Assembly: GCF_041248615.1 (NCBI RefSeq)
Contig: NZ_CP158426.1
DNA from: Escherichia coli
GTDB lineage: Bacteria; Pseudomonadota; Gammaproteobacteria; Enterobacterales; Enterobacteriaceae
Length of the DNA stretch: 64,000 nt
Reading direction: 5' to 3' (one strand)
Part shown: positions 2,707 to 51,830 of the stretch, piece by piece
Numbering within the stretch: position 1 is the first letter of the stretch
Layout: each line of letters opens with the position of its first letter
Notes under the pieces: generated by a model
Told to the model about the DNA's origin: nothing
What the model saw: only the letters and a program-made list of their open reading frames with translations
Database searches by the model: none
Program-made: the position numbers and the translations under genes

Positions 2707-2753
2707 TGGTGGCCCCTGCTGGACTTGAACCAGCGACCAAGCGATTATGAGTC
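2707..2753 (-). repeat. attR: displaced 47-nt 3' fragment of tRNA-Ile2 (acceptor/T-arm/anticodon-stem 3' side)
   Basis: Matches 43/47 nt of the intact tRNA at 51123..51169; homology stops abruptly at 2753. Confidence 0.85.
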
Positions 2754-2949: not shown

Positions 2950-4266
2950 ATGGCCGTCAATCTTACTGAAACAGCCATCCGAGCATTGAAAGCAAAAAAG
3001 ACATCGTTCTATGTCTGGAGCAACAGCTCTCAACGTGGCACTGGACGACTTGGTGTCAAAGTTCAGCCTTCTGGCAGCAAGATTTTCTATTTCCGCTATT
3101 ACGTGGAAAAAGGGAAAAAAGAAAGATTCATTCAATTGGGTATATGGCCTGAGATGAAACTGGCCACAGCGAATGAACTGGCAAAAAAGTATGGTGCCTG
3201 GCTCATTGAAGGAAAGGCTCCCCAGGCAGAACTGGAACGACAACAGTTTGCAGAACAGCAGCGGATACAACTCCATCAATCACAGGGCTCATTTGAAGCA
3301 TTGATTCATGGTTATGTTAACAAAATGAAAATTGATAATAAGAGGACATGGCAGGATGTTCTGAAACGCCTTGAAAATGAATGCTATACAGTGATCCCCC
3401 GTGAAACTAAAGCTAAAGATGTGACTTCCGGACAGATTAAACATATCCTGGCCGGGATCATTCAGCGCGGTGCTGTGGTTCACTCTAACCGGATCCGTTC
3501 TTACCTGATGGCTGCATTTAACTATGGACTGAAAGCAGATAACGATCCGATGAACACAAGTGTAGGGATTACTTTTGGGCTGGAGGCAAATCCGGTGTCA
3601 GTGATACCGAAACAGTCATCTGCTGAAAAAGTCGGTGATACCTGGCTGACACTTGAAGAGTTGCGTTTTCTAATGGAACATTTTGCTGAAGCAACCAACG
3701 TTGGATTATTGATGCAACATTTGATCCGATTCTGTATCTATACCGGAGGGCAACGTCCTTTCGAAATGATCGCCAGTCAGTGGTGTGATGTTGATTTTCA
3801 ACAAAAAACGCTGCTGGTGACTGCTGATGTCTCTAAAAATAAACGAGAGCATTTGATACCGTTGACTGAATCAGCATTACAGGAATTATCCTGTGTGCAG
3901 GAGTTAACAAAAGAAAAATCCAGCCCTTACATTTTTCCACTTTCGACTAATGGTAAGCGTCCGGTTCGTACGGACAGTCTGGCTCGCGCTATCATGTATT
4001 TCCGGGCTTTTAATCCTGACTTTAAAATTTTTACAGCACGTGACTTACGTCGGACCTGTAAAACGTTAATGGGAGAAGCTGGGATCAGTAAGGAAATCCG
4101 CGATCGTATTCAAAATCATGCGTTGAACGATGTCAGTTCAAAACATTATGATCGATACGATTATTTGCCAGAAAAACGCAGAGCACTTGAGATCTGGGAG
4201 GACCGGGTTAATAACTATCAACAGCAAACAGGCAATAATGTTGTCAATCTGTTTGGCAGAAGGTGA
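2950..4266 (+). CDS. P4-like tyrosine integrase (N-terminal arm-binding domain plus C-terminal catalytic domain)
   Basis: 438-aa ORF; N-terminus MAVNLTETAIRALKAKK...; C-terminal R...HxxR...Y catalytic residues (DLRRT, NHAL, SKHYDRYDY). Confidence 0.9.
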   Translation: MAVNLTETAIRALKAKKTSFYVWSNSSQRGTGRLGVKVQPSGSKIFYFRYYVEKGKKERFIQLGIWPEMKLATANELAKKYGAWLIEGKAPQAELERQQFAEQQRIQLHQSQGSFEALIHGYVNKMKIDNKRTWQDVLKRLENECYTVIPRETKAKDVTSGQIKHILAGIIQRGAVVHSNRIRSYLMAAFNYGLKADNDPMNTSVGITFGLEANPVSVIPKQSSAEKVGDTWLTLEELRFLMEHFAEATNVGLLMQHLIRFCIYTGGQRPFEMIASQWCDVDFQQKTLLVTADVSKNKREHLIPLTESALQELSCVQELTKEKSSPYIFPLSTNGKRPVRTDSLARAIMYFRAFNPDFKIFTARDLRRTCKTLMGEAGISKEIRDRIQNHALNDVSSKHYDRYDYLPEKRRALEIWEDRVNNYQQQTGNNVVNLFGRR

Positions 4267-18512: not shown

Positions 18513-18523
18513 GTTCACCCGTA

Positions 18524-20592: not shown

Positions 20593-20640
20593 CCGTTTCC
20601 TGCCCGTAACCGTTGTGCACGTCATTTTTGTTGCGGGTGA

Positions 20641-22188
<1,548 letters not shown>

Positions 22189-24012: not shown

Positions 24013-26769
<2,757 letters not shown>

Positions 26770-28744: not shown

Positions 28745-29174
28745 TACAATTCCCGATTTACTTTTTTAGACTGAGCTATATTTATGGGGAAGGAAGCTAC
28801 CTGAATAATAAAATAAAAAATGCTAACTGAATCGCTTCAGTGAAATAAAGTTATAAAGGTTAATAATTGTATAAATAATGTTATTTTTTTATTAAATATG
28901 AATAACCACTAAATATTACAACACCCATTAGAGTTAATCATTAATAGGTATGGGATGATCTTTGCAATAAATAAGTGTTTTGGCATCCCCTCAAAGGGCG
29001 AGGTATGAATTATATGGCGGTGGTAATTTCATTAAAAAATGTGAGCGGTACCGAAAGAAATAAAATGGGGTATTGCATGTGGATATTGATTGAGGGAATA
29101 TTCTGCTTTGTCATACAAATGAACTTATAGCCATTTTCACTGGCCCTGATATAAGGAGCGGAGAGCCGCCCTCC

Positions 29175-30872: not shown

Positions 30873-30946
30873 AATACGAATGAACATTTGTTTGATATCG
30901 CGATATCAAGCGCAATAAACAGAAATGAAGCAATGGAGTAGTTATT

Positions 30947-31666: not shown

Positions 31667-31676
31667 GGGGAAAGAG

Positions 31677-34436: not shown

Positions 34437-35632
<1,196 letters not shown>

Positions 35633-38600
35633 CTAAATCTTTCCACCCACCCCCTTAAATTTTTCAATAAATGCGCTAATTTTTTGAAAAACAGTCTGTT
35701 TTTTCGTTTTATATTGCGGATTTAAAGGACTGAGTCTGGGCAGTGTCTCGTTTAATTCCGTGCCATTTTCGGTGGCGTATTCGCGTTTTAAAGATGTGCG
35801 AATATAGCGTTTCGCCGCCTCTTCATTGAGATTTTCTTCTTTGATCAAGGCTTCTGCTTCACGTTGCTGTTCGCGTTGAGCAAACGTAAAGAATGCGTCA
35901 ATGATGCTGGCTTTGTCCGGTAAATCATCCAGGTTCGTTTGCTGAATAAAATCGACCACCAGGCCCTCTTTAGCACGGTTCCCCAGGCTTGAACGAATTA
36001 AGCGTTTGACCTCTTCGATCATTTCGCTCTTACCTTTGTTTTGTCTGTTGTGCTCGAAAATCAGACCAAGGATATAATCCAGGTTTATTTCCTGAGATTT
36101 CAGCAAATCGACCTCAAAAACTACGTCATCCCAGTCAGTGGTTGATTTCTCTTTTTTCTCAGCTTCTTTCTCACGGCGCTGCCAGTCGCGAATATCGTTA
36201 TAGGCAGAACGATAATCCTGAATCTTGCGATCAGCAGGGAGACGAATTGTTTGCAATTCAGCGAGCTTTTCATCATCCACATAATGTTCTGCTTTGAATT
36301 TTTCTACTGCAACAGGATCGCTAAGATCGATTTGTTGCAGGGCTTTCAGCGTGGCAAATTCATCATAGTTTTGCAGGATGTTCTCGGCACGCAGGTATTC
36401 ACCAAACAGTTTAACGAAGTCTTTCTTCTCTTTTTCACTTTCAATACTGGCAGGGTCAGGGAACCGTTGTTCCAGTTCTGCAACTACTGCCATAAAGCCG
36501 CGCTTAGCTTCACCAGTAGCAGCATCAGTAAAGCCTTCCATATACTCTGCATAACTCTTTTCTAACACTACATTTTTGGTGTTTTTGTCACCAAACAGCG
36601 TTATGGCATCGATGGTTGAGCGTTCCAGATCGCGGAAAGTGACGATATTACCGAAGGTTTTAGTTGCATCATAAATACGGTTGGTGCGGGAAAATGCCTG
36701 CATCAGGCCGTGAAAACGCAAGTTTTTATCGACGAATAGCGTGTTCAATGTTGGAGCATCGAAACCGGTTAAAAACATCCCCACGACAATTAACAGATCG
36801 ATATCCTGATTTTTAACCCGTTGGGCTAAATCACGATAGTAGTTCTGAAAACCCTTACTGTCGGTGCTGAAGTTAGTTTTAAAATAGCTGTTATACTCAC
36901 GAATTGCAGCGTCAAGAAACTCTTTAGCACTGCTGTCCATTGCGCTGGTATCAAAAGTTTCATCGGATATTTCACCAATCGCATTTTGTTCTTCATTAGC
37001 GGCAAAGGAGAAGATTGTCGCAACACGCAGTGGTTTACAGGTAGTAGATTTATTAGCGGCTTCCTCTTGTAACCGTTTAAACGTCGCGTAATAGGCTTTC
37101 GCGGCATCCACGCTGCTTACTGCCAGCATGGCATTAAAACCTTTGGAGCCAGGGAAAGTACGGTGGGTTTTCTGGCGGAAATTATTCAGAATATATTGCG
37201 TGATTTCCTGAATACGCATGGGATGAAGAAACGCCTGCTGATTTTCAGCCGCACTTAGTTTTTTCTCGTCAGTTTCTGTCTCTAAAGACTTAAACTGTGG
37301 TCGCACATCGTTGTAGTCCACCTTGAATTTGAGCACTTTTTCGTCACGAATCGCATCGGTAATTACATACGAATGCAATTCACGACCAAATACGCTGGCG
37401 GTTGTTTCTGAGCCTAAGGCGTTTTCCGGGAAAATAGGGGTGCCGGTAAAACCAAACTGATAATAGCGTTTGAATTTCTTCTTCAGGTTTTTCTGCGCTT
37501 CTCCAAACTGGCTGCGGTGGCATTCATCAAATATAAACACCACTTGCTGATTATATACAGGCAGGTCGCTTTCTGCTTTCATCAGGTTATTGAGTTTCTG
37601 AATAGTAGTGACGATAATTTTGTTATCGTCCTTATCCAGATTTCGTTTAAGGCCTGCGGTATTTTCCGAGCCGTTGACGCTGTCTGGCGAAAAACGCTGA
37701 TATTCCTTCATGGTCTGGTAATCGAGGTCTTTCCTGTCGACCACAAAGAAGACTTTATCAATAAAGTCCAGCTCTGTTGCCAGACGCGCGGCTTTAAAGC
37801 TGGTGAGGGTTTTACCAGAACCGGTAGTGTGCCAGATATACCCACCGCTTTCCGGTTTTGACCAGTTCTTCGCTGTAAAGGAACTCTTAATTTTCCACAG
37901 AATGCGCTCGGTGGCGGCAATCTGGTACGGTCGCATCACCAGTAGCGTCTGACTACTGTCAAAAACGCTGTAGTTCACCAGAACATTCAGCAGAGTATGT
38001 TTCTGGAAAAAGGTAGCGGTAAAGTCTTTGAGGTCTTTAATCAGCGTGTTGTCTGATTTCGCCCAGTTCATGGTGAAGTCAAAACTGTTTTTATCGCGCT
38101 TTGTTGTGTTGGCAAAATAACGGGTATCGGTGCCGTTAGAAATGACAAACAGTTGCAGATACTTAAACAGAGAATTTTCGCTGTTAAAACTCTCTTTGCT
38201 GTAACGGTGTATCTGGTTGAACGCTTCACGAATCGCCACGCCGCGCTTTTTCAGTTCGATTTGCACCAGCGGCAAGCCATTAACCAGGATCGTGACGTCA
38301 TAACGGTTAGCGTGAGAGCCTGCCTGTTCAAACTGCTGGATAATCTGCACTTTATTGCGCATGAGATTCTTTTTATCTATCAAATAGATGTTCTCAAGAC
38401 GCCCGTCGTCAAAAATAAAGTCGCAGATGTAGTCGATATGAATTTTACGGGTTTTATCCAGGATGCCATCGCTCGGATTATCCAGAAACTGCTCCGTGAA
38501 ACGCCGCCACTCGCTGTCATTAAACACCACACCATTGAGGTTCTGAAGCTGTTCCCGAACGTTGGCCAGCATCGCTGACTGTGATTTTACGGGTATAAAT

Positions 38601-38749
38601 TCATAGCCCTGATTCCGCAGGTCCTGAATCAGTTCACGTTCCAGGTCCGATTCGCTCTGGTAGCTGTCGCCTGTTTGCTCAGCTTTGATGTACTTATCAA
38701 GAACGATAAAGTTATTGGATTCAGCAATGGTGTGTGTTTGATGAGTCAT
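35633..38749 (-). CDS. hsdR: Type I restriction enzyme R subunit (EcoR124-like, Type IC)
   Basis: 1038 aa; Walker A TTGSGKT, DECH box ([10 protein letters not shown]), helicase motifs; same length as EcoR124I HsdR (from memory). Confidence 0.9.
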
Positions 38750-38870
38750 AGCGCATCCTTTGTGCCGTCTGGCAAGGGTCGGAAGGGAGTTAATGGTGAC
38801 TTCCGGCGTGTAAAAAATAGTCTATATACAGACCGGATGTTAAGGTGATCCGGTCTGTAATAATGGTCAA

Positions 38871-40064
38871 TTAATTACTGACAGTTTCAGGTTTCGGGAA
38901 ACTGAACAGTAAATCACGGTAGTACTCGTATTGTTTCTGGCGTAACTCGATTTCACGCGGGAGACCTTCGGTGATGGAGTTGGTCAGGGTGTCGAATTTA
39001 TCGAGAATAGATACAATTCGTTTTTGTTCAGCTATGCATGGAATTGGGATTCGGAACTGTCTAAGATTTGTCAGATTGAGCATTCCATAGTTACGCATTT
39101 CAGATTTAAGTGTATTGTATAAATTTGTCAAGAAATAGAATATGAATTTATCAGTAATAATATTTTCTTTAGTGGACTTTATGCTGGCTATATTTTGATT
39201 GGTTGTTGCTTCAAACTCAAGAAATGCAGTTTTAAATATAGTTGCACCAACAAGTGCGATTAAAGTGGTATTCTTAGGAAGAAGTTTTGCAGTGGATTTT
39301 TTTAATCCTAGCTCGCTTATAAAATCTTTCGCAAAATAAACAGATTCATTATTACATGATTCCGATTTTAACCATGGAATTGACCCATTATCCCAGTATT
39401 CTGCTTTAGATTTTGAGGGGGTTCCTCCAGCGCAAATATGAAATAACTCTTCATTTCCCAAAGTTGTCCAATTAACCTCACCCTCTTTAAAACTCAACAA
39501 CTGGTCGCGATAGTAGTTGTACTGTTTTTTACGCATGTTAAGCTCAGCGGTAAGCTCAGCGGTAAGTGCAGTAAATTTATCCAGAATCCGAACGATTTCA
39601 GACTGGATGGCAAGGGACTTTTCCGGGTTGTCCGGACTAGGAATGGGAACTTTAAATCCTTCCAGCATGGGTTTTCTTATCGAAATGGCGGTAGCACCCA
39701 CACTTTTTGTCAAGATGTACTGCTTAAAGCTAGATGACATGAAGTAATACAAAAACTTCGTGTCTACGGCATTAGTTGTGATACGAATTCTATACGCCCT
39801 TTGATGTAGAGCATATTTCCCCTCAACATAGTGAAATATGTCGCCAATTCCACCTTCACCAGGAATGACTATTGCTACCTCATCAAATTCAAAGGTATCT
39901 GACTTCAAGATATTCTTTGAGCGAACATAGAATGGATAAATTCCATTTTCGCTTTCATCCTGACGATTTGAACTTCCAGTACCGATATCTGCCATAGAAC
40001 CCAATGTTACCCACTCAACCTCAACCCCATCCAACAGTTTTTCCAGATAGCTCAGCTCGCTCAT
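38871..40064 (-). CDS. hsdS: Type I restriction-modification specificity subunit (Type IC; two target-recognition domains with a TAEL-repeat central region)
   Basis: 397 aa; conserved N-terminus [18 protein letters not shown] and central ...[33 protein letters not shown]; second conserved repeat ...[16 protein letters not shown]... Confidence 0.85.
39541..39564. repeat. 12-bp tandem repeat x2 (agctcagcggta) inside hsdS, encoding TAEL-TAEL
   Basis: Two perfect adjacent 12-bp units followed by a diverged third unit (agtgcagtaaat). Confidence 0.85.
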
Positions 40065-41617
40065 TTCTGCACCTCGCAGCCTTCAATTTCAGCCACAATC
40101 GCATCAATATCTTTGCGCAACTGGTCGATTTTGCTGACCGTGGTTTTCAGTTCAGCATTCAGCTCATCGATATCGATAATTTCGCGGTTATCTTTCGCTT
40201 CCACATAGCTGCTCACCGACAGGTTATAGTCATTCGCGACAACGGCTTCGAACGCGACAGATTTTGCCAGATGAGCAACATCTTCCTTGCTGGCAAATAC
40301 CTGCATAATCTGTTCGATATGGGCATCGGTCAGGATATTGTTGTTAGTCTCTTTTTTGAACAGTTCGCTGGCGTCAATAAACTGAACTTTGGTATCCGTT
40401 TTATGTTTAGACAGCACCAGAATATTTACGGCAATGGTGGTGCCAAAGAACAGGTTCGGTGCGAGTGAAATCACGGTTTCGACATAGTTATTGTCGACCA
40501 GATACTGACGGATTTTCTGCTCTGCGCCGCCACGGTAAAAAATACCCGGGAAGCAGACAATCGCAGCACGACCTTTGGCCGAAAGATAGTTCAGCGCATG
40601 TAGTACAAACGCAAAGTCAGCTTTGGATTTGGGGGCCAGAACGCCAGCCGGGGCAAAACGTTCATCGTTAATCAGCGTCGGGTCATCGCTGCCAATCCAT
40701 TTCACCGAATACGGTGGGTTAGATACGATGGCGTCAAACGGTTTTTCATCTCTGAAGTGCGGCTCAGTCAGTGTATTACCCAGCTTGATATCAAACTTGT
40801 CGTAGTTGATATTGTGCAAAAACATGTTCATACGCGCCAGGTTATAGGTCGTATGGTTGATTTCCTGACCGAAAAAGCCTTCTTCGATGATATGGTTATC
40901 AAACTGTTTTTTCGCCTGCAACAACAGTGAGCCGGAACCCGCTGCCGGGTCGTAGATTTTGTTAACGCTGGTCTGCCCGTGCATAGCCAGTTGTGCAATC
41001 AGCCTGGAGACGTGCTGCGGTGTAAAGAACTCACCGCCTGACTTACCGGCATTTGCGGCATAGTTAGAAATCAGGAACTCATAGGCATCGCCGAACAGGT
41101 CAATCTGATGTTCGTTAAAGTCGCCAAGCTTTAACCCTTCAACCCCTTTCAGAACCGCAGCCAGGCGGGCATTTTTATCCTTAACGGTGTTACCCAGGCG
41201 GTTACTGGTGGTATCGAAATCAGCAAACAAACCTTTGATGTCTGCTTCTGAAGGGTAGCCGTAAGCAGAACTTTCGATAGCAACGAAGATGCTGTTTAAA
41301 TCTGCATTCAGTCTGTCATTGGTATTTGCTTTCGCAGCTACGTTGCAGAAAAGCTGACTGGGGTAGATGAAGTAGCCTTTGGTTCTGATGGCATCGTCTT
41401 TAATGTCATCAGTAATTACGCTGTCATCCAGTTTCGCATAACAGATACTGTCATCACCGGCTTCAATATAACTGGAAAAATTTTCGCTGATAAAACGGTA
41501 GAAAAGTGCGCCCAGAACGTATTGCTTAAAATCCCATCCGTCAACAGAACCTCTGACATCATTGGCAATTTGCCATATCTGGCGGTGCAGTTCTGCTCGT
41601 TGTTGAATACTTGTCAT
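40061..41617 (-). CDS. hsdM: Type I restriction-modification N6-adenine DNA methyltransferase subunit
   Basis: 518 aa; motif [11 protein letters not shown], motif IV NPPY (SNPPYSVKW); stop overlaps hsdS start. Confidence 0.9.
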
Positions 41618-41880
41618 TTTTAATCCATTTTCCTGGTTTGGACCTGAATCATTGAGGGCAATTCTACAGCAATCTTGTGGTTCAGGCAGCCCCGGAGTAA
41701 GTCGGTGTACATTGTGAGATACCTGGGGTATTCACGACAAGGAGGAGGAACGGAATATTGCCTTTCCTTTGCAGTGCACCAGGTGCATTCTAAATAATTT
41801 CAGACAGATATTATCTCCGTGAATCCCCCGCCACCTTTCCGGTGCGCGGGGTTTTGTCTTTTTTCACCGGGAATACATGT

Positions 41881-42753
41881 ATGAATCCGTCTGATGCCAT
41901 TGAGGCAATTGAAAAACCACTTTCTTCCCTGCCTTACTCACTTTCCCGTCACATCCTGGAACATCTGCGCAAACTCACCAGCCACGAACCCGTGATTGGC
42001 ATTATGGGGAAAAGCGGGGCCGGTAAATCCTCACTCTGTAATGCACTGTTTCAGGGGGAGGTCACCCCGGTCAGTGATGTTCACGCCGGCACCCGGGAAG
42101 CGCAGCGCTTCCGTCTGAGTGGCCATGGTCACAGCATGGTTATCACTGACCTGCCCGGGGTGGGCGAGAGCCGGGACAGGGATGCAGAGTATGAAGCCCT
42201 GTACCGTGACATTCTGCCTGAACTTGACCTGGTACTGTGGCTGATTAAAGCCGATGACCGTGCCCTGTCTGTGGATGAGTATTTCTGGCGACACATCCTG
42301 CACCGGGGACATCAGCGGGTACTGTTTGTGGTGACGCAGGCCGATAAAACGGAGCCCTGCCATGAATGGGATATGGCCGGTATTCAGCCTTCTCCCGCAC
42401 AGGCACAGAACATTCGCGAAAAAACGGAGGCGGTATTCCGTCTGTTCCGGCCCGTACATCCGGTTGTGGCCGTATCGGCCCGCACCGGCTGGGAACTGGA
42501 TACGCTGGTCAGTGCGCTCATGACAGCACTTCCCGACCATGCCGCCAGTCCCCTGATGACCCGCCTGCAGGACGAGCTGTGCACGGAATCTGTCCGGGGG
42601 CAGGCCCGTGAACAGTTTACCGGTGCGGTGGACCGGATATTTGACACGGCGGAGAGCGTCTGTGTTGCCTCTGTGGCTCGTACGGTTCTGCGTGCCGTCC
42701 GTGACACGGTGGTCTCTGTTGCCCGCGCTGTATGGAACTGGATTTTCTTCTGA
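41881..42753 (+). CDS. YeeP/YkfA/YfjP-like GTPase (ORF open from 41842)
   Basis: G1 motif GIMGKSGAGKSS, G3 DLPG; conserved position immediately upstream of antigen 43 as in CP4-type prophages. Confidence 0.7.
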   Translation: MNPSDAIEAIEKPLSSLPYSLSRHILEHLRKLTSHEPVIGIMGKSGAGKSSLCNALFQGEVTPVSDVHAGTREAQRFRLSGHGHSMVITDLPGVGESRDRDAEYEALYRDILPELDLVLWLIKADDRALSVDEYFWRHILHRGHQRVLFVVTQADKTEPCHEWDMAGIQPSPAQAQNIREKTEAVFRLFRPVHPVVAVSARTGWELDTLVSALMTALPDHAASPLMTRLQDELCTESVRGQAREQFTGAVDRIFDTAESVCVASVARTVLRAVRDTVVSVARAVWNWIFF

Positions 42754-42871
42754 ACACTCTGCCAGGGGAAATGCCTGATTACATTGCGTTAACCAACTGA
42801 AAACATGACACAAACACCTCATACCCACCTCTTTCTCTTGCGTGACTGCCTTGCTGTTAATAGAATAAAAC

Positions 42872-42907
42872 GATCGATAAAACAGGTATCGATCGTTGTA
42901 ATCGATC
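42872..42907. promoter_or_regulatory. Three GATC sites in the agn43 regulatory region (Dam/OxyR phase-variation switch)
   Basis: GATC at 42872, 42891 and 42904 within aacGATCgataaaacaggtatcGATCgttgtaatcGATCgtt, about 220 bp upstream of the antigen 43 start. Confidence 0.6.
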
Positions 42908-43124
42908 GTTTATGGTGGTTAATGGTCTGCGAAAAGGCAGCTGAATCTCTTCATCATGCAGAACGGAATTGCACACAACGGACTGATACTTCTCTGGCGG
43001 ATGAGAGAGGGGAAGCATTTATGTCCGGGAAAAACCACTTTATCTGACCATGCTGTTTTGTACCTGCCGGTATCCACATTTGTGGGTACCGGCTTTTTTA
43101 TTCACCCTCTGTAAGGAAAAGCTG

Positions 43125-45971
43125 ATGAAACGACATCTGAACACCAGCTACAGGCTGGTATGGAATCACATTACGGGCACCCTGGTGGTGGCTTCCGAAC
43201 TGGCCCGCTCACGGGGAAAACGCGCCGGTGTGGCGGTTGCGCTGTCTCTTGCTGCTGTCACGCCAGTCCCGGCACTGGCTGCTGACACGGTTGTAGAGGC
43301 GGGAGAAACCGTGAACGGCGGAACACTGACAAATCATGACAACCAGATTGTCTTCGGTACGACCAACGGAATGACCATCAGTACCGGGCTGGAGTATGGG
43401 ACGGATAACGAGGCCAATACCGGCGGACAATGGATACAAAATGGCGGTATCGCCAACAACACTACTGTCACCGGTGGTGGTCTTCAGAGAGTGAATGCCG
43501 GAGGAAGCGTTTCAGACACGGTTATCAGTGCCGGAGGCGGACAGAGCCTTCAGGGGCAGGCAGTGAACACCACTCTGAACGGCGGTGAGCAGTGGGTACA
43601 TGAAGGCGGGATTGCAACGGGTACCGTCATTAATGAGAAGGGCTGGCAGGCCGTCAAATCCGGCGCAATGGCAACCGACACGGTTGTGAATACCGGCGCG
43701 GAAGGGGGACCGGATGCAGAAAATGGTGATACCGGGCAGTTTGTTCGCGGAAATGCCGTACGTACCACTATCAATGAAAATGGTCGTCAGATTGTGGCTG
43801 CTGAAGGAACAGCAAATACCACTGTGGTTTATGCCGGCGGCGACCAGACTGTACATGGTCACGCACTGGATACTACGCTGAATGGGGGGTACCAGTATGT
43901 GCACAACGGCGGTACGGCGTCTGACACTGTTGTAAACAGTGACGGCTGGCAGATTATCAAGGAAGGTGGTCTGGCGGATTTCACCACCGTTAACCAGAAA
44001 GGCAAACTGCAGGTGAACGCCGGTGGTACCGCCACACATGTCACCCTGAAACAGGGTGGAGCACTGGTCACCAGTACTGCGGCAACGGTTCTTGGCAGCA
44101 ACCGTCTGGGCAATTTCACGGTGGAAAACGGTAAGGCTGACGGCGTTGTTCTGGAGTCCGGCGGTCGCCTGGATGTACTGGAAGGCCATTCAGCGCAGAA
44201 AACACGGGTGGATGACGGCGGAACCCTGGCAGTGTCTGCCGGTGGTAAGGCAACAGGTGTCACCATGACATCCGGTGGTGCCCTGATTGCAGACAGTGGT
44301 GCCACTGTTGAGGGGACCAATGCCAGCGGTAAGTTCAGTATTGATGGCATATCCGGTCAGGCCAGCGGCCTGCTGCTGGAAAATGGCGGCAGCTTTACGG
44401 TTAATGCCGGGGGACAGGCCAGCAACACCACTGTCGGACATCGTGGAACACTGATGCTGGCTGCCGGGGGAAGTCTGAGTGGCAGAACACAGCTCAGTAA
44501 AGGCGCCAGCATGGTACTGAATGGTGATGTGGTCAGTACCGGCGATATTGTTAACGCAGGGGAGATTTACTTTGACAATCAGACAACACCGGATGCCGCG
44601 CTGAGCCGTGCTGTTGCAAAAGGCGACTCCCCGGTAACGTTCCATAAACTGACCACCAGTAACCTCACCGGTCAGGGGGGCACCATCAATATGCGTGTTC
44701 GCCTTGATGGCAGCAATGCCTCTGACCAGCTGGTGATTAATGGTGGCCAGGCAACCGGCAAAACCTGGCTTGCGTTCACAAATGTCGGAAACAGTAACCT
44801 CGGGGTGGCAACCTCCGGACAGGGTATCCGGGTTGTGGATGCACAGAATGGTGCCACCACAGAAGAAGGTGCGTTTGCCCTGAGTCGCCCGCTTCAGGCC
44901 GGTGCCTTTAACTACACCCTGAACCGTGACAGCGATGAAGACTGGTACCTGCGCAGTGAAAATGCTTATCGTGCTGAAGTCCCCCTGTATGCCTCCATGC
45001 TGACACAGGCAATGGACTATGACCGGATTCTGGCAGGCTCCCGCAGCCATCAGACCGGTGTAAACGGTGAAAATAACAGCGTCCGTCTCAGCATTCAGGG
45101 CGGTCATCTCGGTCACGATAACAACGGCGGTATTGCCCGTGGGGCCACGCCGGAAAGCAGCGGCAGCTATGGCTTCGTCCGTCTGGAGAGTGACCTGCTG
45201 AGAACAGAGGTTGCCGGTATGTCTGTGACCGCAGGGGTATATGGTGCTGCTGGCCATTCTTCCGTTGATGTTAAGGATGATGACGGCTCCCGCGCCGGCA
45301 CGGTCCGGGATGATGCCGGCAGCCTGGGCGGATATCTGAATCTGGTACACACGTCCTCCGGCCTGTGGGCTGACATTGTGGCACAGGGAACCCGCCACAG
45401 CATGAAAGCGTCATCGGACAATAACGACTTCCGCGCCCGGGGCTGGGGCTGGCTGGGCTCACTGGAAACCGGTCTGCCCTTCAGTATCACTGACAACCTG
45501 ATGCTGGAACCACAACTGCAGTATACCTGGCAGGGACTCTCCCTGGATGACGGCCAGGATAACGCCGGTTATGTGAAGTTCGGGCATGGCAGTGCACAAC
45601 ATGTGCGTGCCGGTTTCCGTCTGGGCAGCCACAACGATATGAGCTTTGGTGAAGGCACCTCATCCCGTGACACCCTGCGCGACAGTGCAAAACACAGTGT
45701 GAGTGAACTGCCGGTAAACTGGTGGGTACAGCCTTCTGTTATCCGCACCTTCAGCTCCCGGGGTGACATGAGCATGGGTACAGCTGAAGCCGGCAGTAAC
45801 ATGACGTTCTCACCGTCACAGAATGGCACGTCACTGGACCTGCAGGCCGGACTGGAAGCCCGTGTCCGGGAAAATATCACTCTGGGCGTTCAGGCCGGTT
45901 ATGCCCACAGTGTCAGCGGCAACAGCTCTGAAGGCTATAACGGTCAGGCCACGCTGAATGTGACTTTCTGA
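43125..45971 (+). CDS. flu: Antigen 43 self-associating autotransporter adhesin
   Basis: 948-aa product from ATG 43125; extended signal peptide MKRHLNTSYRLVWNHITGTLVVASELARS..., repetitive beta-helix passenger, C-terminal beta-barrel ending ...TLNVTF. Confidence 0.85.
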   Translation: MKRHLNTSYRLVWNHITGTLVVASELARSRGKRAGVAVALSLAAVTPVPALAADTVVEAGETVNGGTLTNHDNQIVFGTTNGMTISTGLEYGTDNEANTGGQWIQNGGIANNTTVTGGGLQRVNAGGSVSDTVISAGGGQSLQGQAVNTTLNGGEQWVHEGGIATGTVINEKGWQAVKSGAMATDTVVNTGAEGGPDAENGDTGQFVRGNAVRTTINENGRQIVAAEGTANTTVVYAGGDQTVHGHALDTTLNGGYQYVHNGGTASDTVVNSDGWQIIKEGGLADFTTVNQKGKLQVNAGGTATHVTLKQGGALVTSTAATVLGSNRLGNFTVENGKADGVVLESGGRLDVLEGHSAQKTRVDDGGTLAVSAGGKATGVTMTSGGALIADSGATVEGTNASGKFSIDGISGQASGLLLENGGSFTVNAGGQASNTTVGHRGTLMLAAGGSLSGRTQLSKGASMVLNGDVVSTGDIVNAGEIYFDNQTTPDAALSRAVAKGDSPVTFHKLTTSNLTGQGGTINMRVRLDGSNASDQLVINGGQATGKTWLAFTNVGNSNLGVATSGQGIRVVDAQNGATTEEGAFALSRPLQAGAFNYTLNRDSDEDWYLRSENAYRAEVPLYASMLTQAMDYDRILAGSRSHQTGVNGENNSVRLSIQGGHLGHDNNGGIARGATPESSGSYGFVRLESDLLRTEVAGMSVTAGVYGAAGHSSVDVKDDDGSRAGTVRDDAGSLGGYLNLVHTSSGLWADIVAQGTRHSMKASSDNNDFRARGWGWLGSLETGLPFSITDNLMLEPQLQYTWQGLSLDDGQDNAGYVKFGHGSAQHVRAGFRLGSHNDMSFGEGTSSRDTLRDSAKHSVSELPVNWWVQPSVIRTFSSRGDMSMGTAEAGSNMTFSPSQNGTSLDLQAGLEARVRENITLGVQAGYAHSVSGNSSEGYNGQATLNVTF

Positions 45972-45994
45972 TAATCAGGTCACTCCCCTTCAGG

Positions 45995-46021
45995 CCCCGG
46001 TCATAATGACCGGGGCTTTTT
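45995..46021 (+). terminator. Rho-independent terminator after flu
   Basis: ccccggtcat a atgaccgggg followed by cttttt. Confidence 0.55.
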
Positions 46022-46297
46022 ACTTTCAGGGAGCAACAGATATGCCGGGTTGTACATCACGTTTATTGCCGAAGGCTCTTTTGCTGCCAAATGGCATCTG
46101 AATCGTTCACAATTTGGCCGGTTATTGCCCGATCCCGATGGGGTTATTGGGTGATCTCCTTCCATAAAAATACGCAGCTCGCCAGTGAAGGGCTTCTCAG
46201 ACAATAAACGTCATTCATTTCGTCCATCAGGCCGCGTCTTCTCCGGGAGACGCGGCTTTTTCATTTACACCGCTAACTCATTCATAAGGAATAAATC

Positions 46298-47116
46298 ATG
46301 CGATTAGCCAGTCGTTTTGGTTATGCGAACCAGATACGCCGTGACCGCCCCTTAACCCGTGAAGAACTGATGCAGGTCGTCCCCAGCGTATTCGGGGAAG
46401 AGAAACACACATCCAGAAGCGAGAACTATACCTGGATCCCCACCATCACCGTGCTGGAAAGCCTGCAGCGGGAAGGCTTCCAGCCATTCTTCGCCTGCCA
46501 GACCCGCGTGCGCGACCCGGGCCGCCGGGGATACACCAAACACATGCTGCGTCTGCGCCGTGACGGGGAGATAAACGGACAACATGTCCCTGAAATCATC
46601 CTGCTGAACTCCCATGACGGTACCTCCAGCTACCAGATGCTGCCGGGTTACTTCAGGTTCGTCTGCCAGAACGGATGCGTCTGTGGTCAGTCTCTGGGGG
46701 AAGTGCGTGTTCCACACCGGGGAGACGTAGTGGAGAAAGTTATCGAAGGGGCTTACGAGGTGGTGGGGGTTTTTGACCGGATTGAGGAGAAGCGTGATGC
46801 CATGCAGTCGCTGGTCCTGCCGCCACCGGCACGCCAGGCGCTGGCACAGGCGGCACTGACTTACCGTTATGGTGACGAACATCAGCCCGTCACCACTGCT
46901 GACATTCTGACACCGCGACGCCGGGAGGATTACGGTAAGGACCTGTGGAGTGCTTATCAGACCATCCAGGAGAATATGCTGAAAGGCGGGATTTCCGGTC
47001 GCAGTGCCAGAGGAAAACGTATCCATACCCGTGCCATTCACAGCATCGACACGGACATTAAGCTCAATCGCGCATTGTGGGTGATGGCAGAAACACTGCT
47101 GAAGAGTATGCGCTGA
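46298..47116 (+). CDS. DUF932-type protein (YfjQ/YafZ-like)
   Basis: 272 aa; family and position typical of CP4-type prophage ends (assignment from memory). Confidence 0.55.
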   Translation: MRLASRFGYANQIRRDRPLTREELMQVVPSVFGEEKHTSRSENYTWIPTITVLESLQREGFQPFFACQTRVRDPGRRGYTKHMLRLRRDGEINGQHVPEIILLNSHDGTSSYQMLPGYFRFVCQNGCVCGQSLGEVRVPHRGDVVEKVIEGAYEVVGVFDRIEEKRDAMQSLVLPPPARQALAQAALTYRYGDEHQPVTTADILTPRRREDYGKDLWSAYQTIQENMLKGGISGRSARGKRIHTRAIHSIDTDIKLNRALWVMAETLLKSMR

Positions 47117-47206
47117 TGCCTTTTCCCTGAAAGCGCAGTTCTGACTCATGTCCGTCCCTGCCCCGCGACTTCTTCCCTTCATTTACTTTTTATAAGGAAT
47201 AATCTC

Positions 47207-47692
47207 ATGACAACCGTTTTGCATAATTCCACCACATCTTCTGTTTCCGTAACCGCTGTATCAGAGAATAACCCGACTCAACTGGTTGCCACCCTCGTCC
47301 CTGATGAACAGCGCATCAGCTTCTGGCCGCAGCATTTTGGCCTCATTCCACAGTGGGTGACCCTGGAGCCCCGTGTCTTCGGCTGGATGGACCGTCTGTG
47401 CGAAGACTACTGCGGTGGTATCTGGAATCTGTACACCCTGAACAACGGCGGGGCATTTATGGCCCCCGAACCGGATGACGATGATGACGAAACATGGGTA
47501 CTGTTCAGTGCCATGAACGGTAACCGCGCTGAAATGAGCCCGGAAGCTGCCGGTATTGCCGCCTGTCTGATGACGTACAGCCATCATGCCTGTCGTACGG
47601 AGTGTTATGCCATGACGGTCCATTATTACCGTCTGCGGGATTACGCCCTGCAGCATCCGGAATGCAGCGCCATTATGCGTATCATCGACTGA
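47207..47692 (+). CDS. Putative antirestriction protein (YfjX/YafX-like)
   Basis: 161 aa; acidic stretch EPDDDDDE; conserved position upstream of radC-like gene. Confidence 0.5.
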   Translation: MTTVLHNSTTSSVSVTAVSENNPTQLVATLVPDEQRISFWPQHFGLIPQWVTLEPRVFGWMDRLCEDYCGGIWNLYTLNNGGAFMAPEPDDDDDETWVLFSAMNGNRAEMSPEAAGIAACLMTYSHHACRTECYAMTVHYYRLRDYALQHPECSAIMRIID

Positions 47693-48184
47693 ATGGAGAG
47701 AAGCATAATGCAACAGCTTTCCTTTCTGCCCGGAGAGATGACGCCTGGCGAGCGCAGCCTCATTCAGCGGGCCCTGAAAACCCTGGACCGCCATCTTCAT
47801 GAACCCGGCGTGGCCTTCACCTCCACGCATGCGGCACGGGAGTGGCTGATTCTGAACATGGCGGGACTGGAGCGGGAAGAGTTCCGGGTGCTGTATCTGA
47901 ACAACCAGAATCAGCTGATTGCCGATGAAACCCTCTTCACCGGCACCATCAACCGCACGGAAGTCCATCCCCGTGAAGTGATTAAACGCGCCCTGTATCA
48001 CAATGCCGCTGCTGTGGTGCTGGCACACAATCACCCGTCCGGTGAAGTCACACCCAGCAAGGCAGACCGCCTTATCACGGAACGTCTGGTACAGGCACTG
48101 GCCCTGGTGGATATCCGGGTACCGGACCATCTGATAGTTGGTGGCAACCAGGTTTTCTCCTTTGCGGAACACGGTCTGCTTTAA
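47693..48184 (+). CDS. RadC-like JAB/MPN-domain protein (YeeS/YkfG/YfjY-like)
   Basis: JAB motif HNHPSGEVTPSKAD. Confidence 0.75.
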   Translation: MERSIMQQLSFLPGEMTPGERSLIQRALKTLDRHLHEPGVAFTSTHAAREWLILNMAGLEREEFRVLYLNNQNQLIADETLFTGTINRTEVHPREVIKRALYHNAAAVVLAHNHPSGEVTPSKADRLITERLVQALALVDIRVPDHLIVGGNQVFSFAEHGLL

Positions 48185-48252
48185 CCCGTCACCGTTACAA
48201 CCACATCACACCTGTTTTCACTTTTATCTTCTGTCTTCAGAGGTATCCCACT

Positions 48253-48474
48253 ATGAAAATCATCACCCGTGGCGAAGCCATGCGTATTCATCAACAACAT
48301 CCTGCATCCCGTCTTTTCCCGTTCTGTACCGGCAAATACCGCTGGCACGGCAGCACTGAAGCGTATACCGGTCGTGAAGTGCAGGATATTCCCGGTGTGC
48401 TGGCCGTGTTTGCTGAACGCCGTAAGGACAGTTTTGGCCCATATGTCCGGTTGATGAGCGTCACCCTGAACTGA
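48253..48474 (+). CDS. DUF987-type small protein (YeeT/YkfH-like)
   Basis: 73 aa; conserved position between radC-like and antitoxin genes. Confidence 0.5.
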   Translation: MKIITRGEAMRIHQQHPASRLFPFCTGKYRWHGSTEAYTGREVQDIPGVLAVFAERRKDSFGPYVRLMSVTLN

Positions 48475-48553
48475 GTCTGGAAGGGCATTCAGATGAGCAG
48501 AATTATCGCCACCACCGGACCATTCTTAACCGATTTTCTGTGAGGACTTTATC

Positions 48554-48922
48554 GTGTCAGACACACTGCCCGGGACAACGCATCCCGACAACAACAACGA
48601 CCGCCCCTGGTGGGGGCTGCCCTGCACCGTGACGCCCTGTTTCGGGGCACGTCTGGTGCAGGAGGGTAACCGGTTGCATTACCTTACAGACCGCGCCGGT
48701 ATCAGAGGGCGGTTCAGCGATGCGGATGCGAACCATCTGGACCAGGCCTTTCCGCTGCTGATGAAACAACTGGAACTCATGCTCACCAGCAGTGAACTGA
48801 ATCCCCACCGTCAGAATACCGTCACGCTGTATGTTAAAGGGCTGACCTGCCATGCGGACACCCTCGGCAGCTGTGGTTACGTTTATCTGGCTGTTTATCC
48901 GACGCCCGAAATGAAAAATTAA
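48554..48922 (+). CDS. cbeA: CbeA/YeeU-family type IV antitoxin
   Basis: 122 aa; gene pair arrangement with downstream CbtA-like toxin. Confidence 0.7.
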
Positions 48923-49011
48923 CTCTCCAGAATAGCCTTCTGCTACGGCCTGGTGCTTTCACCACGCCACTTTTCCATTTTTCATCTCTGCATATCAGGA
49001 AAATCTTCAGT

Positions 49012-49395
49012 ATGAAAACATTACCTGTATTACCCGGGCAGGCGGCCAGTTCACGCCCGTCTCCGGTTGAAATCTGGCAGACACTGCTCACCCGACTGCT
49101 GGACCAGCACTACGGCCTTACGCTGAATGACACACCGTTCGCCGATGAACGTGTGATTGAGCAGCATATTGAAGCTGGCATTTCACTGTGTGATGCGGTG
49201 AACTTTCTCGTTGAAAAATACGCACTGGTACGTACCGACCAGCCGGGATTCAGCGCCTGTACCCGCTCTCAGTTAATAAACAGTATTGATATTCTCCGGG
49301 CTCGCCGGGCAACCGGCCTGATGACCCGCGACAATTACAGAACGGTAAATAACATTACCCTGGGTAAGCATCAGGAGTCGAAACGATGCAACTGA
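49012..49395 (+). CDS. cbtA: CbtA/YeeV-family toxin (cytoskeleton-binding toxin)
   Basis: 127 aa [43 protein letters not shown]... Confidence 0.7.
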
Positions 49396-49874
49396 CCCTG
49401 ACACTGGAAGCCGACAGCGTTAACGTACAGGCACTGAATATGGGGCGAATTGTCGTTGACATTGATGGTGTTAATCTCGCTGAACTGATTAACATGATCT
49501 GCGATAACGGCTACTCCCTTCGTGTTGTTGATGAATCTGACCGGACCTCAGCAGACTGCACGCCACCATTTGCTGCCCTTACCGGCATACGCTGCAGTAC
49601 CGCACATATCACGGAAACGGACAACACCTGGCTGTACTCGCTGTCGCATCAGACGAATGACACCGGCGAATCAGAATGGATTCATTTTACAGGCAGAGGG
49701 TATCTGTTACGTACCGATGCTTTGTCGTATCCGGTGCTACACCTTAAACGTCTGGGCCTGTCAAAAACCTTCCGCCGTCTGGTTGTCACTCTCATCCGGC
49801 GTTATGGCGTCAGTCTTATTCATCTGGATGCCAGCGCCGGGTGTCTGCCGGATTTACCCACTTTCGACTGGTAA
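49386..49874 (+). CDS. YeeW-like hypothetical protein, overlapping the toxin gene 3' end
   Basis: 162-aa ORF starting 10 bp before the cbtA stop. Confidence 0.4.
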
Positions 49875-49885
49875 CCAGAAACAAC

Positions 49886-50083
49886 ATGAAATCATTAACC
49901 ACGGAAACAGCGCTGGATATTCTGATTGCGTGGCTGCAGGACAATATCGACTGTGAATCCGGAATTATCTTTGACAACGATGAGGATAAAACGGATTCGA
50001 CAGCCCTGTTGTCCTGTATTGAACAGGCCAGGGAGGATATCCGTACCCTGCGCCAACTGCAGCTTCAGCCCCCGAACCGGTGA
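49886..50083 (+). CDS. Small hypothetical protein (DUF957-like); ORF open from 49841
   Basis: ATG at 49886 gives MKSLTTETALDILIAWLQDNID... Confidence 0.4.
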   Translation: MKSLTTETALDILIAWLQDNIDCESGIIFDNDEDKTDSTALLSCIEQAREDIRTLRQLQLQPPNR

Positions 50084-50179
50084 GTTTCACTCATCATCTC
50101 ACTCACCAGACTTCATTCCACTGACGCCAGCCTGAACAGGGCTGGCGTTTTCATTTATCTGCAAAAAGGAATATCGATT

Positions 50180-51025
50180 ATGTCTGATATCACAGCCTCC
50201 CGTCCGGAAGTAGTCAACGGGCATACGGACGTTATCTGCTCAACCAGTATCCGCCACATTCTGGCTGTACGAAAAAGTACACTGCTGCAAATCAACACAC
50301 TTATCCGGCAACTGGCTGAAATCTCAGCAATGACAGAAAGTATTGGCGGTAAAACCGCACTGGACTGGGCGATGAAACAGGATTTTCGCTGTGGCTGCTG
50401 GCTCATGGAGAAACCTGAAACGGCAATGAAAGCCATCACACACAATCTCGATCGTGAAATCTGGCGTGACTTGATGCAACGTTCCGGGATGCTTTCCTTA
50501 ATGGATGCACAGGCCCGTGAGACATGGTACCGGTCACTGGAGTACGATAATTTTCCGGAAATCAGCGAAGCGAACATCCTGAGCACATTTGAACAACTGC
50601 ACCAGAATAAGGATGAGGTGTTTGAGCGAGGGGTGATCAACGTCTTCAGAGGGCTGAACTGGAATTACAAAACCAATTGCCCCTGTAAATTTGGCAGTAA
50701 AATTATCGTCAACAATCTGGTGAGATGGGACCGGTGGGGATTTCATCTTATCACCGGACAACAGGCTGACCGACTCGCCGATCTGGAAAGAATGTTGCAC
50801 CTGTTCAGCGGTAAACCAATCCCCGACAATCGGGAAAACATCACTATTCGTCTGGATGAGCACATTCAGTCTGTTCAGGGTAAAGAGAGCTATGAAGATG
50901 AGATGTTCAGCATCAGATACTTTAAGAAGGGCTCCGCGCATATCACATTCAGAAAACCAGAACTGGTTGATCGGCTAAATGACATCATTGCAAAGCGTTA
51001 TCCGGGACAATTATCAGCCATCTGA
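50180..51025 (+). CDS. Hypothetical 281-aa protein at the tRNA-proximal end of the island
   Basis: ORF only; last gene before the reconstituted tRNA. Confidence 0.5.
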   Translation: MSDITASRPEVVNGHTDVICSTSIRHILAVRKSTLLQINTLIRQLAEISAMTESIGGKTALDWAMKQDFRCGCWLMEKPETAMKAITHNLDREIWRDLMQRSGMLSLMDAQARETWYRSLEYDNFPEISEANILSTFEQLHQNKDEVFERGVINVFRGLNWNYKTNCPCKFGSKIIVNNLVRWDRWGFHLITGQQADRLADLERMLHLFSGKPIPDNRENITIRLDEHIQSVQGKESYEDEMFSIRYFKKGSAHITFRKPELVDRLNDIIAKRYPGQLSAI

Positions 51026-51042
51026 GTCAGATGGAAAAAAGC

Positions 51043-51066
51043 TTACCTGACCCATTACCTGACCCA
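51043..51066. repeat. 24-bp direct repeat TTACCTGACCCATTACCTGACCCA (right copy), 57 bp from the tRNA 3' end
   Basis: Identical to 2880..2903. Confidence 0.8.
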
Positions 51067-51070
51067 ATTC

Positions 51071-51113
51071 AAAGGAAAAAGAAAAAGGGTTAGCTGGTTT
51101 ATTAGCTAACCCT
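51071..51113 (-). terminator. Island-borne rho-independent terminator directly downstream of the reconstituted tRNA
   Basis: Minus strand: stem agctaaccct / agggttagct followed by tttttcttttt. Confidence 0.55.
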
Positions 51114-51122
51114 TTGTTGTGT

Positions 51123-51198
51123 ATGGTGGCCCCTGTTGGGTTTGAACCAACGACCAAGCGATTATGAGTCGCCTGCTCTAACCACTGAGCTAAGGGGC
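51123..51198 (-). tRNA. ileX: tRNA-Ile2 (anticodon CAU, lysidine-modified), attL side of the island
   Basis: 76-nt cloverleaf GGCCCCTTAGCTCAGTGGTTAGAGCAGGCGACTCATAATCGCTTGGTCGTTGGTTCAAACCCAACAGGGGCCACCA with encoded CCA; K-12 position between mug and yqjH. Confidence 0.9.
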
Positions 51199-51323
51199 CA
51201 TGGTAGCGGATTATAAAGTAACTCCGTGTCGCAATCCAGCCATTACCGCGCGCCTGCTGTTTTTATAAACAATGTATTTTCAATCCGTTATACTTTTCCT
51301 GGTGATGTTAGAAAGGAGTAAAT

Positions 51324-51830
51324 ATGGTTGAGGATATTTTGGCCCCAGGGCTACGGGTCGTGTTTTGCGGTATCAACCCTGGGCTTTCATCCGCCGGAAC
51401 GGGTTTTCCCTTTGCTCATCCGGCAAATCGCTTCTGGAAGGTGATATATCAGGCCGGGTTTACCGACCGTCAGTTGAAGCCGCAGGAGGCACAGCATCTG
51501 CTGGATTATCGTTGTGGCGTCACCAAACTGGTAGACCGTCCAACGGTGCAAGCCAATGAAGTTTCAAAGCAAGAACTACACGCAGGCGGGCGTAAGCTGA
51601 TTGAAAAAATTGAAGATTATCAGCCGCAGGCGTTGGCGATTCTGGGCAAACAAGCATATGAACAGGGATTCAGCCAGCGCGGTGCACAGTGGGGGAAACA
51701 AACTCTCACCATTGGTTCGACGCAGATTTGGGTGCTGCCAAATCCCAGCGGTTTAAGTCGCGTTTCACTGGATAAACTGGTTGAAGCGTATCGCGAGCTG
51801 GACCAGGCGCTGGTAGTGCGTGGGCGATAA
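51324..51830 (+). CDS. mug: G/U mismatch-specific DNA glycosylase
   Basis: 168 aa [38 protein letters not shown]... Confidence 0.9.

Follow-up and report, generated by a model that had tools for sequence, protein, structure and literature searches.

A nine-gene block beside the ileX tRNA gene of Escherichia coli, probably the complete form of a conserved genomic island arm

A complete integrase-distal arm next to ileX

The subject of this analysis is a block of nine intact open reading frames (ORFs), all on the + strand, that fill positions 46298-51025 of a 64,000-nucleotide stretch of Escherichia coli DNA (contig NZ_CP158426.1 of assembly GCF_041248615.1; the whole stretch is referred to hereafter as the window). 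We conclude that the block is very probably a complete version of the integrase-distal arm that is conserved among E. coli genomic islands, here belonging to one of the P4-integrase type whose insertion site is the tRNA gene ileX. The initial annotation of this DNA had described a CP4-type terminal module adjoining a tRNA and showing the gene order of the ends of the K-12 cryptic prophages. Both points held. That is, the ORFs were found at exactly the coordinates given there, the tRNA lies on the - strand 98 bp beyond the last gene, and the gene order matches CP4-6, CP4-44 and CP4-57. The left boundary at 46298, in contrast, proved to be arbitrary, as the block conserved with K-12 starts further upstream, at a GTPase gene. 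Blocks of this kind have long been known as an almost universal component of E. coli islands, and both the toxin-antitoxin pair and the ArdB antirestriction protein were characterised earlier. The present analysis adds the precise anatomy of the island, the intactness of its toxin, a negative result for the fold of the last protein (DUF4942), and the ties of four of the module families to the leading regions of conjugative plasmids.

When the region 46000-51300 was used as a query, 100% identity (rounded) was obtained with NZ_LT599825.1 and six other complete genomes, and the RefSeq annotation of the identical chromosome NZ_LT599825.1 contains the same nine genes, none more or fewer. Eight of the nine ORFs gave full-length Pfam matches far over threshold (Table 1). 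The exception is a 65-aa ORF (49886-50083), for which the Pfam scan returned no match and whose designation, DUF957, is a RefSeq name only. In an NCBIfam scan, RadC was the sole named match among the block proteins. The three genes initially left as small or unknown (49386-51025) could be named as DUF5983, DUF957 and DUF4942, the start of the DUF5983 gene overlapping the end of cbtA by 10 nt. An alternative upstream ATG, at 47693, is also open for the RadC-like ORF. The promoter scan revealed no + strand promoter-like site within the block, and the total found was not above that in shuffled sequence. Scanning 41500-51500 with Rfam identified the tRNA and an IsrC/IS102 RNA only, none of them within the nine-gene block.

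Anatomy of the ileX island

The island has its insertion site in the tRNA gene ileX and spans positions ~2754 to ~51150 (48.4 kb). In K-12, nfeF directly follows ileX, whereas here the two are separated by the 48.4 kb. The only tRNA in the window, named tRNA-Ile in RefSeq, is identified as ileX by synteny, its neighbours being mug and rpoD, which also flank the K-12 gene. Its positions 30-76 (51124-51170) are island-derived and make up one copy of a 47-nt att repeat; the second copy is the displaced native 3′ part of ileX, which adjoins the nfeF side. There, the native terminator has been kept (~2665-2700), and it and its flank are near-identical, with one mismatch in the stem. The intact tRNA differs from K-12 ileX at tRNA positions 50, 59, 60 and 64, positions 50 and 64 representing a compensatory C-G to T-A change (C50-G64 to T50-A64) in the T stem. 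The crossover fell within the 20 nt common to both ileX copies. The island has therefore put a variant copy of its own in place of the native 3′ part of ileX, so that island-bearing strains express a slightly different tRNA-Ile(CAU). Furthermore, because the element brought its own tRNA 3′ part and terminator, the intact tRNA abuts the module's terminal gene and the displaced part adjoins the integrase.

A 438-aa tyrosine integrase is encoded at the opposite end to the intact tRNA; its Phage_int_M match was weak (E 6.8e-5, 23.5 bits, under the gathering score of 27). The gene order of the integrase-distal end, a tyrosine integrase with a P4-type arm-binding domain and the repeated tRNA 3′ part that borders the element on either side place it among the CP4-type (P4-integrase family) islands of tRNA genes. 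The island annotation contains no phage structural or lysis genes, and the element is therefore not classed as a prophage. The 12-mer TTACCTGACCCA has four copies in the 64-kb window, arranged as two tandem pairs and located at 2880-2903 and 51043-51066 only, against a chance expectation of 0.27. In the excised circle, the two pairs would flank the core by ~100-130 bp per side, an arrangement like that of arm-type integrase sites. No comparable repeat cluster was found at the ends of CP4-6 of K-12. With its intact integrase, its att repeats and these candidate arm sites, the island looks able to excise. Of 5426 complete E. coli genomes, 347 have the one occupied junction and 362 the other, and in sampled genomes without the island nfeF directly adjoins the tRNA. 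The island is thus polymorphic, and it offers a cleanly delimited, seemingly excisable element with candidate integrase arm sites in ~6.5% of complete E. coli genomes.

Comparison with K-12 elements and with islands of Shigella and enterohaemorrhagic E. coli

At the sequence level, the closest counterpart is the right arm of CP4-44 (yeeP-isrC-flu-yeeR-yeeS-yeeT-cbeA-cbtA-yeeW). DNA likeness starts in the GTPase gene (96% nucleotide identity to the yeeP pseudogene), runs through the Ag43 gene (86-89% to flu) and resumes over yeeS-yeeW at 92% nucleotide identity, and isrC lies between yeeP and flu, in the same place as the IsrC-like RNA of the window. However, CP4-44 bears yeeR where the window has the DUF932 and ArdB genes, its yeeW is cut to 64 aa and it is devoid of DUF4942, whereas both of the latter genes are full-length in the window. 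Moreover, CP4-44 has no integrase and cannot excise (PMC5371832), whereas the window element has an integrase and both att sites.

The layout of CP4-6 is like that of the window, with an intact tRNA gene (thrW) beside the end carrying the toxin gene ykfI and with intF at the far end, and the order DUF932 ... ArdB-RadC-DUF987-antitoxin-toxin is the same. CP4-6 differs by the presence of five extra genes between DUF932 and ArdB, by its target tRNA, thrW rather than ileX, by an antitoxin-toxin spacer of 20 nt (PMC5371832) instead of 89 nt, and by having nothing intact after the toxin, where ykfN is a pseudogene. In both CP4-6 and CP4-57, whose proteins are 59-83% identical to those of the window, the GTPase gene directly precedes DUF932, whereas in the window the IsrC-like RNA and the Ag43 gene are inserted at this point, as in CP4-44. 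DUF4942 has been lost from all three K-12 copies. As DUF4942 and a full-length DUF5983 have been kept, the window version is more complete than any K-12 copy.

The same nine-gene order as in the window is found, by tabulated names, in orf48-orf56 of the Shigella flexneri SRL pathogenicity island, which are listed as YfjQ, YfjX/KlcA, YeeS, YeeT, YeeU, YeeV/L0007, YeeW/L0008, DUF957/L0009 and DUF4942/L0010 (PMC6980539). The 65-aa DUF957 protein of the window corresponds to orf55/L0009 in this table. SRL is a different island with different cargo, and the same table cites the homologous ORFs L0007-L0010 of enterohaemorrhagic E. coli (PMC6980539).

Distribution and selection

Parts of the block match in 5425 of the 5426 complete E. 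coli genomes, at a median of four places per genome, and in 3573 of them a single place accounts for 80% or more of the block. For most comparisons with the deep K-12 paralogues, the ratio of nonsynonymous to synonymous substitution rates (dN/dS) was 0.05-0.23, which indicates purifying selection and argues against inert debris. Among 50,697 phage records, no real phage was found to carry the whole block; 65% of it is present in a single 3.2-kb record, unannotated and labelled as phage. The one 100% match to a sequence labelled as a plasmid, NZ_MG591698.1 (354 kb), was rejected as an instance of plasmid carriage, since the island end is followed there by mug, rpoD, dnaG and rpsU; the record looks like a mislabelled chromosomal segment. 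The same record (89561-118403) also contains ISApl1 and mcr-1.1, situated upstream of the GTPase gene by a few kb and seemingly part of the same ileX island.

The CbeA/CbtA toxin-antitoxin pair

No disabling change of the kind envisaged in the initial annotation was seen in the toxin ORF. CbtA is identical to K-12 CbtA at 119 of 124 residues (96%), the only differences being I24T, S27T, Y120H, P121Q and A123S and three extra C-terminal residues, and R15 and F65 are both kept in the alignment of the two proteins. These two residues matter because CbtA blocks division and elongation via separate contacts with FtsZ and MreB: F65S abolishes binding to FtsZ and R15C binding to MreB, and the toxin becomes non-toxic only as the double mutant (PMC5624674). 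The antitoxin gene lies directly upstream of cbtA on the same strand, 89 nt away, and its product is 88.5% identical to K-12 CbeA, which counteracts the toxin without binding it (PMC5371832). The 89-nt spacer folds better than shuffled sequence (z -3.9); that of CP4-44, 88 nt, is likewise of unusual length (PMC5371832). Compared with the CP4-44 copy, dN/dS was 0.41 for cbeA and 0.08 for cbtA, which suggests that the CbeA protein is changing faster than CbtA. More generally, the type IV toxin-antitoxin pairs of K-12 lie near the attachment sites of P4-like elements (PMC5371832).

DUF4942, the terminal protein of the island

A homology search of the 281-aa terminal ORF, which had been proposed as a check, identified the protein as DUF4942 (PF13708). 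Searching 1.84 billion cluster representatives returned 2191 relatives, and in an alignment of 98 diverse full-length ones W95, D201, H254 and N267 are invariant. The AlphaFold model obtained from the alignment (predicted local distance difference test, pLDDT, 89.6; predicted template modelling score, pTM, 0.81) predicts a long helical part, then a small beta sheet, then a last helix. In this model H254 is on a beta strand and N267 in the next helix, an arrangement that is reminiscent of a small metal-binding nuclease motif. No PDB relative of DUF4942 was found by sequence, by profile or by the structure of the confident model.

In a viral structure library, four predicted structures match DUF4942, the best being a 531-aa 'Type I restriction enzyme', which is a methyltransferase fusion, and the rest being unnamed. 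In longer DUF4942 relatives (467-559 aa), a methyltransferase domain follows as a separate C-terminal unit. For the window protein, the database name 'restriction methylase' was rejected, since PF13708 alone matches it and the model matches no methyltransferase and is without a Rossmann-fold domain for binding S-adenosylmethionine. As the methyltransferase domain is a separate add-on of the longer relatives, the stand-alone DUF4942 protein is not a methyltransferase. A stretch of ~200 bp in the middle of the DUF4942 gene (50422-50624) is common to four sequenced E. coli phages (e.g. ON470608.1), at 75-76% identity.

ArdB and the other conserved families

The antirestriction protein matched the PDB entries 2wj9 (E 1.2e-98) and 2kmg, which is KlcA (E 2e-20). 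ArdB proteins from a pathogenicity island of CFT073, from CP4-6 (YafX) and from CP4-57 (YfjX) inhibited all four Type I families in vivo (PMC2836571). The antirestriction role that had been proposed for the gene is therefore supported in so far as close ArdB relatives block Type I restriction. The suggestion that it counters incoming restriction systems is wrong, however, because such proteins guard the incoming element itself. That is, ArdB protects the DNA of its own island upon entry into a new host. The Type I system said to be encoded by the same island is indeed present, beside the block (hsdRSM, 35633-41617 in the RefSeq annotation), so that an unregulated ArdB could in principle blunt the restriction enzyme of its own island.

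Among the remaining proteins, DUF932 is 75-76% identical to K-12 YafZ and YfjQ (dN/dS 0.07-0.12), DUF987 is 97% identical to YeeT (dN/dS 0.05), and DUF5983 is the full-length form of YeeW, which is truncated to 64 aa in K-12 (71% identity over 55 aa). The RadC/JAB protein is 98% identical to YeeS and 78% to YfjY/LfgB. The latter, the CP4-57 paralogue, is now annotated as LfgB, 'CP4-57 prophage protease', and is reported to cleave the antitoxin MqsA (PMC10846083).

Links to the leading regions of conjugative plasmids

Homologues of DUF4942 (33-38% identity) are present in 4348 plasmid records, 3999 of which (92%) are predicted to be conjugative. Similarly, at least 5000 plasmids carry a homologue of DUF932 (62-64% identity), and 4446 (89%) of the matches listed are conjugative. 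In contrast, CbtA is found in only 66 plasmids, of which 34 (52%) are conjugative, and full-length DUF5983 in 39. On an IncI-type plasmid, DUF4942 is the co-directional leading-region gene nearest to nikA and the origin of transfer (oriT), coming after ardA, psiB, psiA and ssb, with a small mobC on the opposite strand between DUF4942 and nikA/oriT. The leading region of an IncL/M plasmid carries DUF4942 together with ssb and the genes for an antirestriction protein and a JAB protein, the latter with 73% nucleotide identity over 198 bp, while on an IncFIA plasmid DUF932 is the last annotated leading-region gene before traM.

The leading regions of IncF, IncI and IncL/M plasmids thus resemble the window arm in carrying DUF932, DUF4942, ArdB/KlcA-type and JAB genes, all co-directional. 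They differ from it in that the toxin-antitoxin system among their genes is hok or pndC, whereas the window has CbtA/CbeA, and CbtA/CbeA, DUF987 and full-length DUF5983 are rare on plasmids. Judged by its gene content, the arm is a mosaic of plasmid-type establishment genes and an island-specific toxin-antitoxin cassette. The label 'prophage' is misleading in this respect, as four of the nine gene families are plasmid leading-region families, which points to a testable route for the spread of the island. DUF932 and DUF4942, which are very common, lie beside plasmid oriT and have no assigned function, appear to be good targets for studies of plasmid establishment.

Possible functions of the arm

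We propose that the arm holds two groups of genes. Genes of one group would act as the DNA of the element enters a new cell: ArdB would block Type I restriction on entry, as shown experimentally for its close relatives, and DUF932, RadC/JAB and DUF4942 may have a role in establishment, as suggested by the plasmid leading-region families. The other group would consist of the type IV toxin-antitoxin pair and its small conserved partners DUF987, DUF5983 and DUF957. By analogy with K-12, CbtA would bind FtsZ and MreB, halting division and elongation, and CbeA would counteract it without binding. Several observations weigh against this proposal. DUF932, RadC/JAB, DUF987, DUF5983, DUF957 and DUF4942 are without an assigned role, DUF4942 being also without a structural relative; the cleavage of MqsA by LfgB, which is the sole published activity of a RadC paralogue of the module, is unlike an establishment role; the activity of CbtA, with its five substitutions and three added C-terminal residues, is a predicted one; and the island annotation lists neither an oriT nor a relaxase, ssb or psiB.

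This last point bears on a more specific scenario, which we regard as a tentative possibility. In this scenario, a helper plasmid or an integrative and conjugative element would mobilise the relaxase-free island from an unrecognised oriT, perhaps near the island end or the attP junction. The arm would then enter the recipient first, and DUF4942, DUF932, ArdB and RadC/JAB would be expressed early against the recipient's defences. The plasmid survey agrees with it, as the DUF4942 and DUF932 homologues are mostly on conjugative plasmids, in contrast to CbtA, and lie in the leading regions of the IncI, IncF and IncL/M examples; moreover, all module genes point to the island end, as the plasmid leading genes point to oriT, and no real phage bears the block. 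In a 2026 preprint (10.64898/2026.01.13.699239), an oriT alone is reported for many relaxase-free islands, the TAI islands of E. coli among them, with genes for defence and anti-defence grouped near it. If true, mobilisation of this kind would explain the several block copies in nearly every E. coli as well as the absence from phages, and DUF4942 and DUF932 would, by their closeness to the IncI and IncF oriT, be among the first genes to reach the recipient. However, when the whole window was compared with the oriT regions of three plasmids (one each of IncI, IncF and IncL/M), only chance words of 11-21 nt were obtained, and folding the template strand of every spacer as DNA, in search of Frpo-like single-strand promoters, gave ordinary terminator hairpins only and no long Frpo-like hairpin. 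Lacking similarity to these three oriT regions and any such hairpin, as well as relaxase, ssb and psiB, the island leaves this scenario at the level of a hypothesis, and ArdB would be equally useful after transduction or transformation.

According to the initial annotation, the toxin-antitoxin pair may stabilise the island. If CbeA/CbtA served mainly for post-segregational killing, cells losing the island would die, and the pair is intact, conserved and placed at the end of an island that seems able to excise in view of its integrase, att repeats and arm-type repeats; other integrative elements are stabilised by toxin-antitoxin pairs, e.g. MosAT in SXT (reviewed in PMC5371832). Wen et al., however, showed that any one of YafW, YfjZ and CbeA neutralises all three paralogous toxins, that the antitoxin genes can be deleted and that the operon is not autoregulated (PMC5371832), and CbeA does not bind the toxin, as mentioned above; nor did we find a report of differential CbeA stability. 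Moreover, four places on the chromosome of this strain match the module, in line with the median of four per genome. Given the cross-neutralisation by paralogous antitoxins, loss of the island would thus probably leave neutralising antitoxins behind. Stabilisation by CbeA/CbtA is therefore possible but unsupported, and we consider it rather unlikely to be the main function of the pair. It is less likely still that the pair serves in stress or phage defence, with CbtA being freed under stress or infection and halting growth, to the benefit of the host or so as to abort the infection. In K-12, deletion of the three toxins lowered oxidative-stress resistance and deletion of the antitoxins raised early biofilm formation (PMC5371832), and here a Type I restriction-modification system lies directly beside the block. 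Yet the trigger of type IV toxins is not known (PMC5371832), and none of the nine block proteins matched a PADLOC defence model, the neighbouring GTPase alone doing so weakly (LeoA, LeoBC). Finally, the K-12 copies are called cryptic prophages and are partly decayed (yeeW truncated; ykfN, ykfK and ykfL pseudogenes; DUF4942 lost), which might suggest inert P4-like prophage debris kept by hitch-hiking alone. This is very improbable for the window, where all nine genes are intact, in view of the low dN/dS values, the near-universal and often multiple presence of the block in E. coli genomes, and its absence as a whole from the phage records, in which only the 3.2-kb record and the 200-bp stretch in four phages were found.

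Neighbouring genes and island cargo

The coordinates of the features of the arm, of the island ends and of the neighbouring genes are collected in Table 1.

Table 1. Features of the ileX island in the window, with positions counted from the first nucleotide of the window
Feature	Coordinates	Strand	Evidence or remark
DUF932 protein, YafZ/YfjQ family, 272 aa	46298..47116	+	Pfam PF06067, E 4e-51
ArdB/KlcA-type antirestriction protein, 161 aa	47207..47692	+	Pfam PF03230 (Antirestrict), E 5e-37
RadC-like JAB-domain protein, 158 aa from RefSeq start	47708..48184	+	Pfam PF04002, E 8e-46
DUF987 protein, YeeT family, 73 aa	48253..48474	+	Pfam PF06174, E 2e-39
CbeA (YeeU) type IV antitoxin, 122 aa	48554..48922	+	Pfam PF06154, E 5e-52
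cbeA-cbtA spacer, 89 nt	48923..49011	+	Between antitoxin and toxin ORFs
CbtA (YeeV) toxin, 127 aa, intact	49012..49395	+	Pfam PF06755, E 4e-59, profile positions 1-112/112
DUF5983 protein, 162 aa	49386..49874	+	Pfam PF25638 and PF19419 (N- and C-terminal domains), E 1e-31 and 1e-20
65-aa protein, 'DUF957' by RefSeq name only	49886..50083	+	WP_000839263.1
Terminator-like hairpin between DUF957 and DUF4942	50123..50149	+	11-bp stem, 7 G-C pairs, then T run
DUF4942 protein, 281 aa, last gene of the island	50180..51025	+	Pfam PF13708, E 8e-69
Two tandem TTACCTGACCCA copies, candidate arm-type integrase sites, right end	51043..51066	+	12-mer search
Island-supplied hairpin terminator	51084..51115		Serves hybrid tRNA (- strand) and DUF4942 (+ strand)
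ileX tRNA-Ile(CAU)	51124..51199	-	ARAGORN and Rfam, 72 bits
Displaced native 3′ part of ileX, 47 nt, att repeat at integrase end	2707..2753	-	Equals K-12 ileX positions 30-76
Two tandem TTACCTGACCCA copies, 46 bp upstream of integrase start codon	2880..2903	+	12-mer search
Tyrosine integrase, 438 aa, at end far from intact tRNA	2950..4266	+	Pfam Arm-DNA-bind_3 and Phage_integrase; RefSeq agrees
GTPase, YeeP/YkfA/YfjP family	41881..42753	+	RefSeq; Pfam MMR_HSR1; block conserved with K-12 begins here
IsrC-like small RNA (Rfam IS102), upstream of Ag43	42870..43106	+	71.8 bits, gathering score 46
Ag43/Cah autotransporter adhesin	43125..45971	+	Pfam ESPR, AIDA, AC_1 and Autotransporter; RefSeq

The weak PADLOC matches of the GTPase were at E 3e-7 (LeoA) and E 5e-4 (LeoBC), and the protein also gave weak matches to dynamin-family Pfam models. 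Between the Ag43 and DUF932 genes is a spacer of 326 bp (45972-46297) with two strong + strand terminator-like hairpins (45992-46018 and 46229-46258), which are ~210 bp apart, the second lying just upstream of the DUF932 start.

Elsewhere in the island, two neighbouring proteins with YagK/YfjJ domains are encoded at 9659-10867. One of them is named 'inovirus Gp2 family' in RefSeq and has a sub-threshold match to Pfam REP_ORF2-G2P (E 2.6e-4), which could be a sign that the island encodes a nicking or rolling-circle initiator-like protein. The cargo, at 12486-22188 and 27191-33792, includes a carbohydrate cluster (alpha-galactosidase, MFS transporter, GH32 hydrolase, PTS IIA, kinase and porin) and a lactate cluster (L-lactate permease, D-lactate dehydrogenase and LutABC-like genes). 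A group II intron reverse transcriptase/maturase gene (ltrA) is located at 24684-26192 within a disrupted IS3-family element, beside a truncated IS1414 (RefSeq), and an ISKpn26 element (34505-35485) adjoins a truncated GntP-family permease gene and hsdR.

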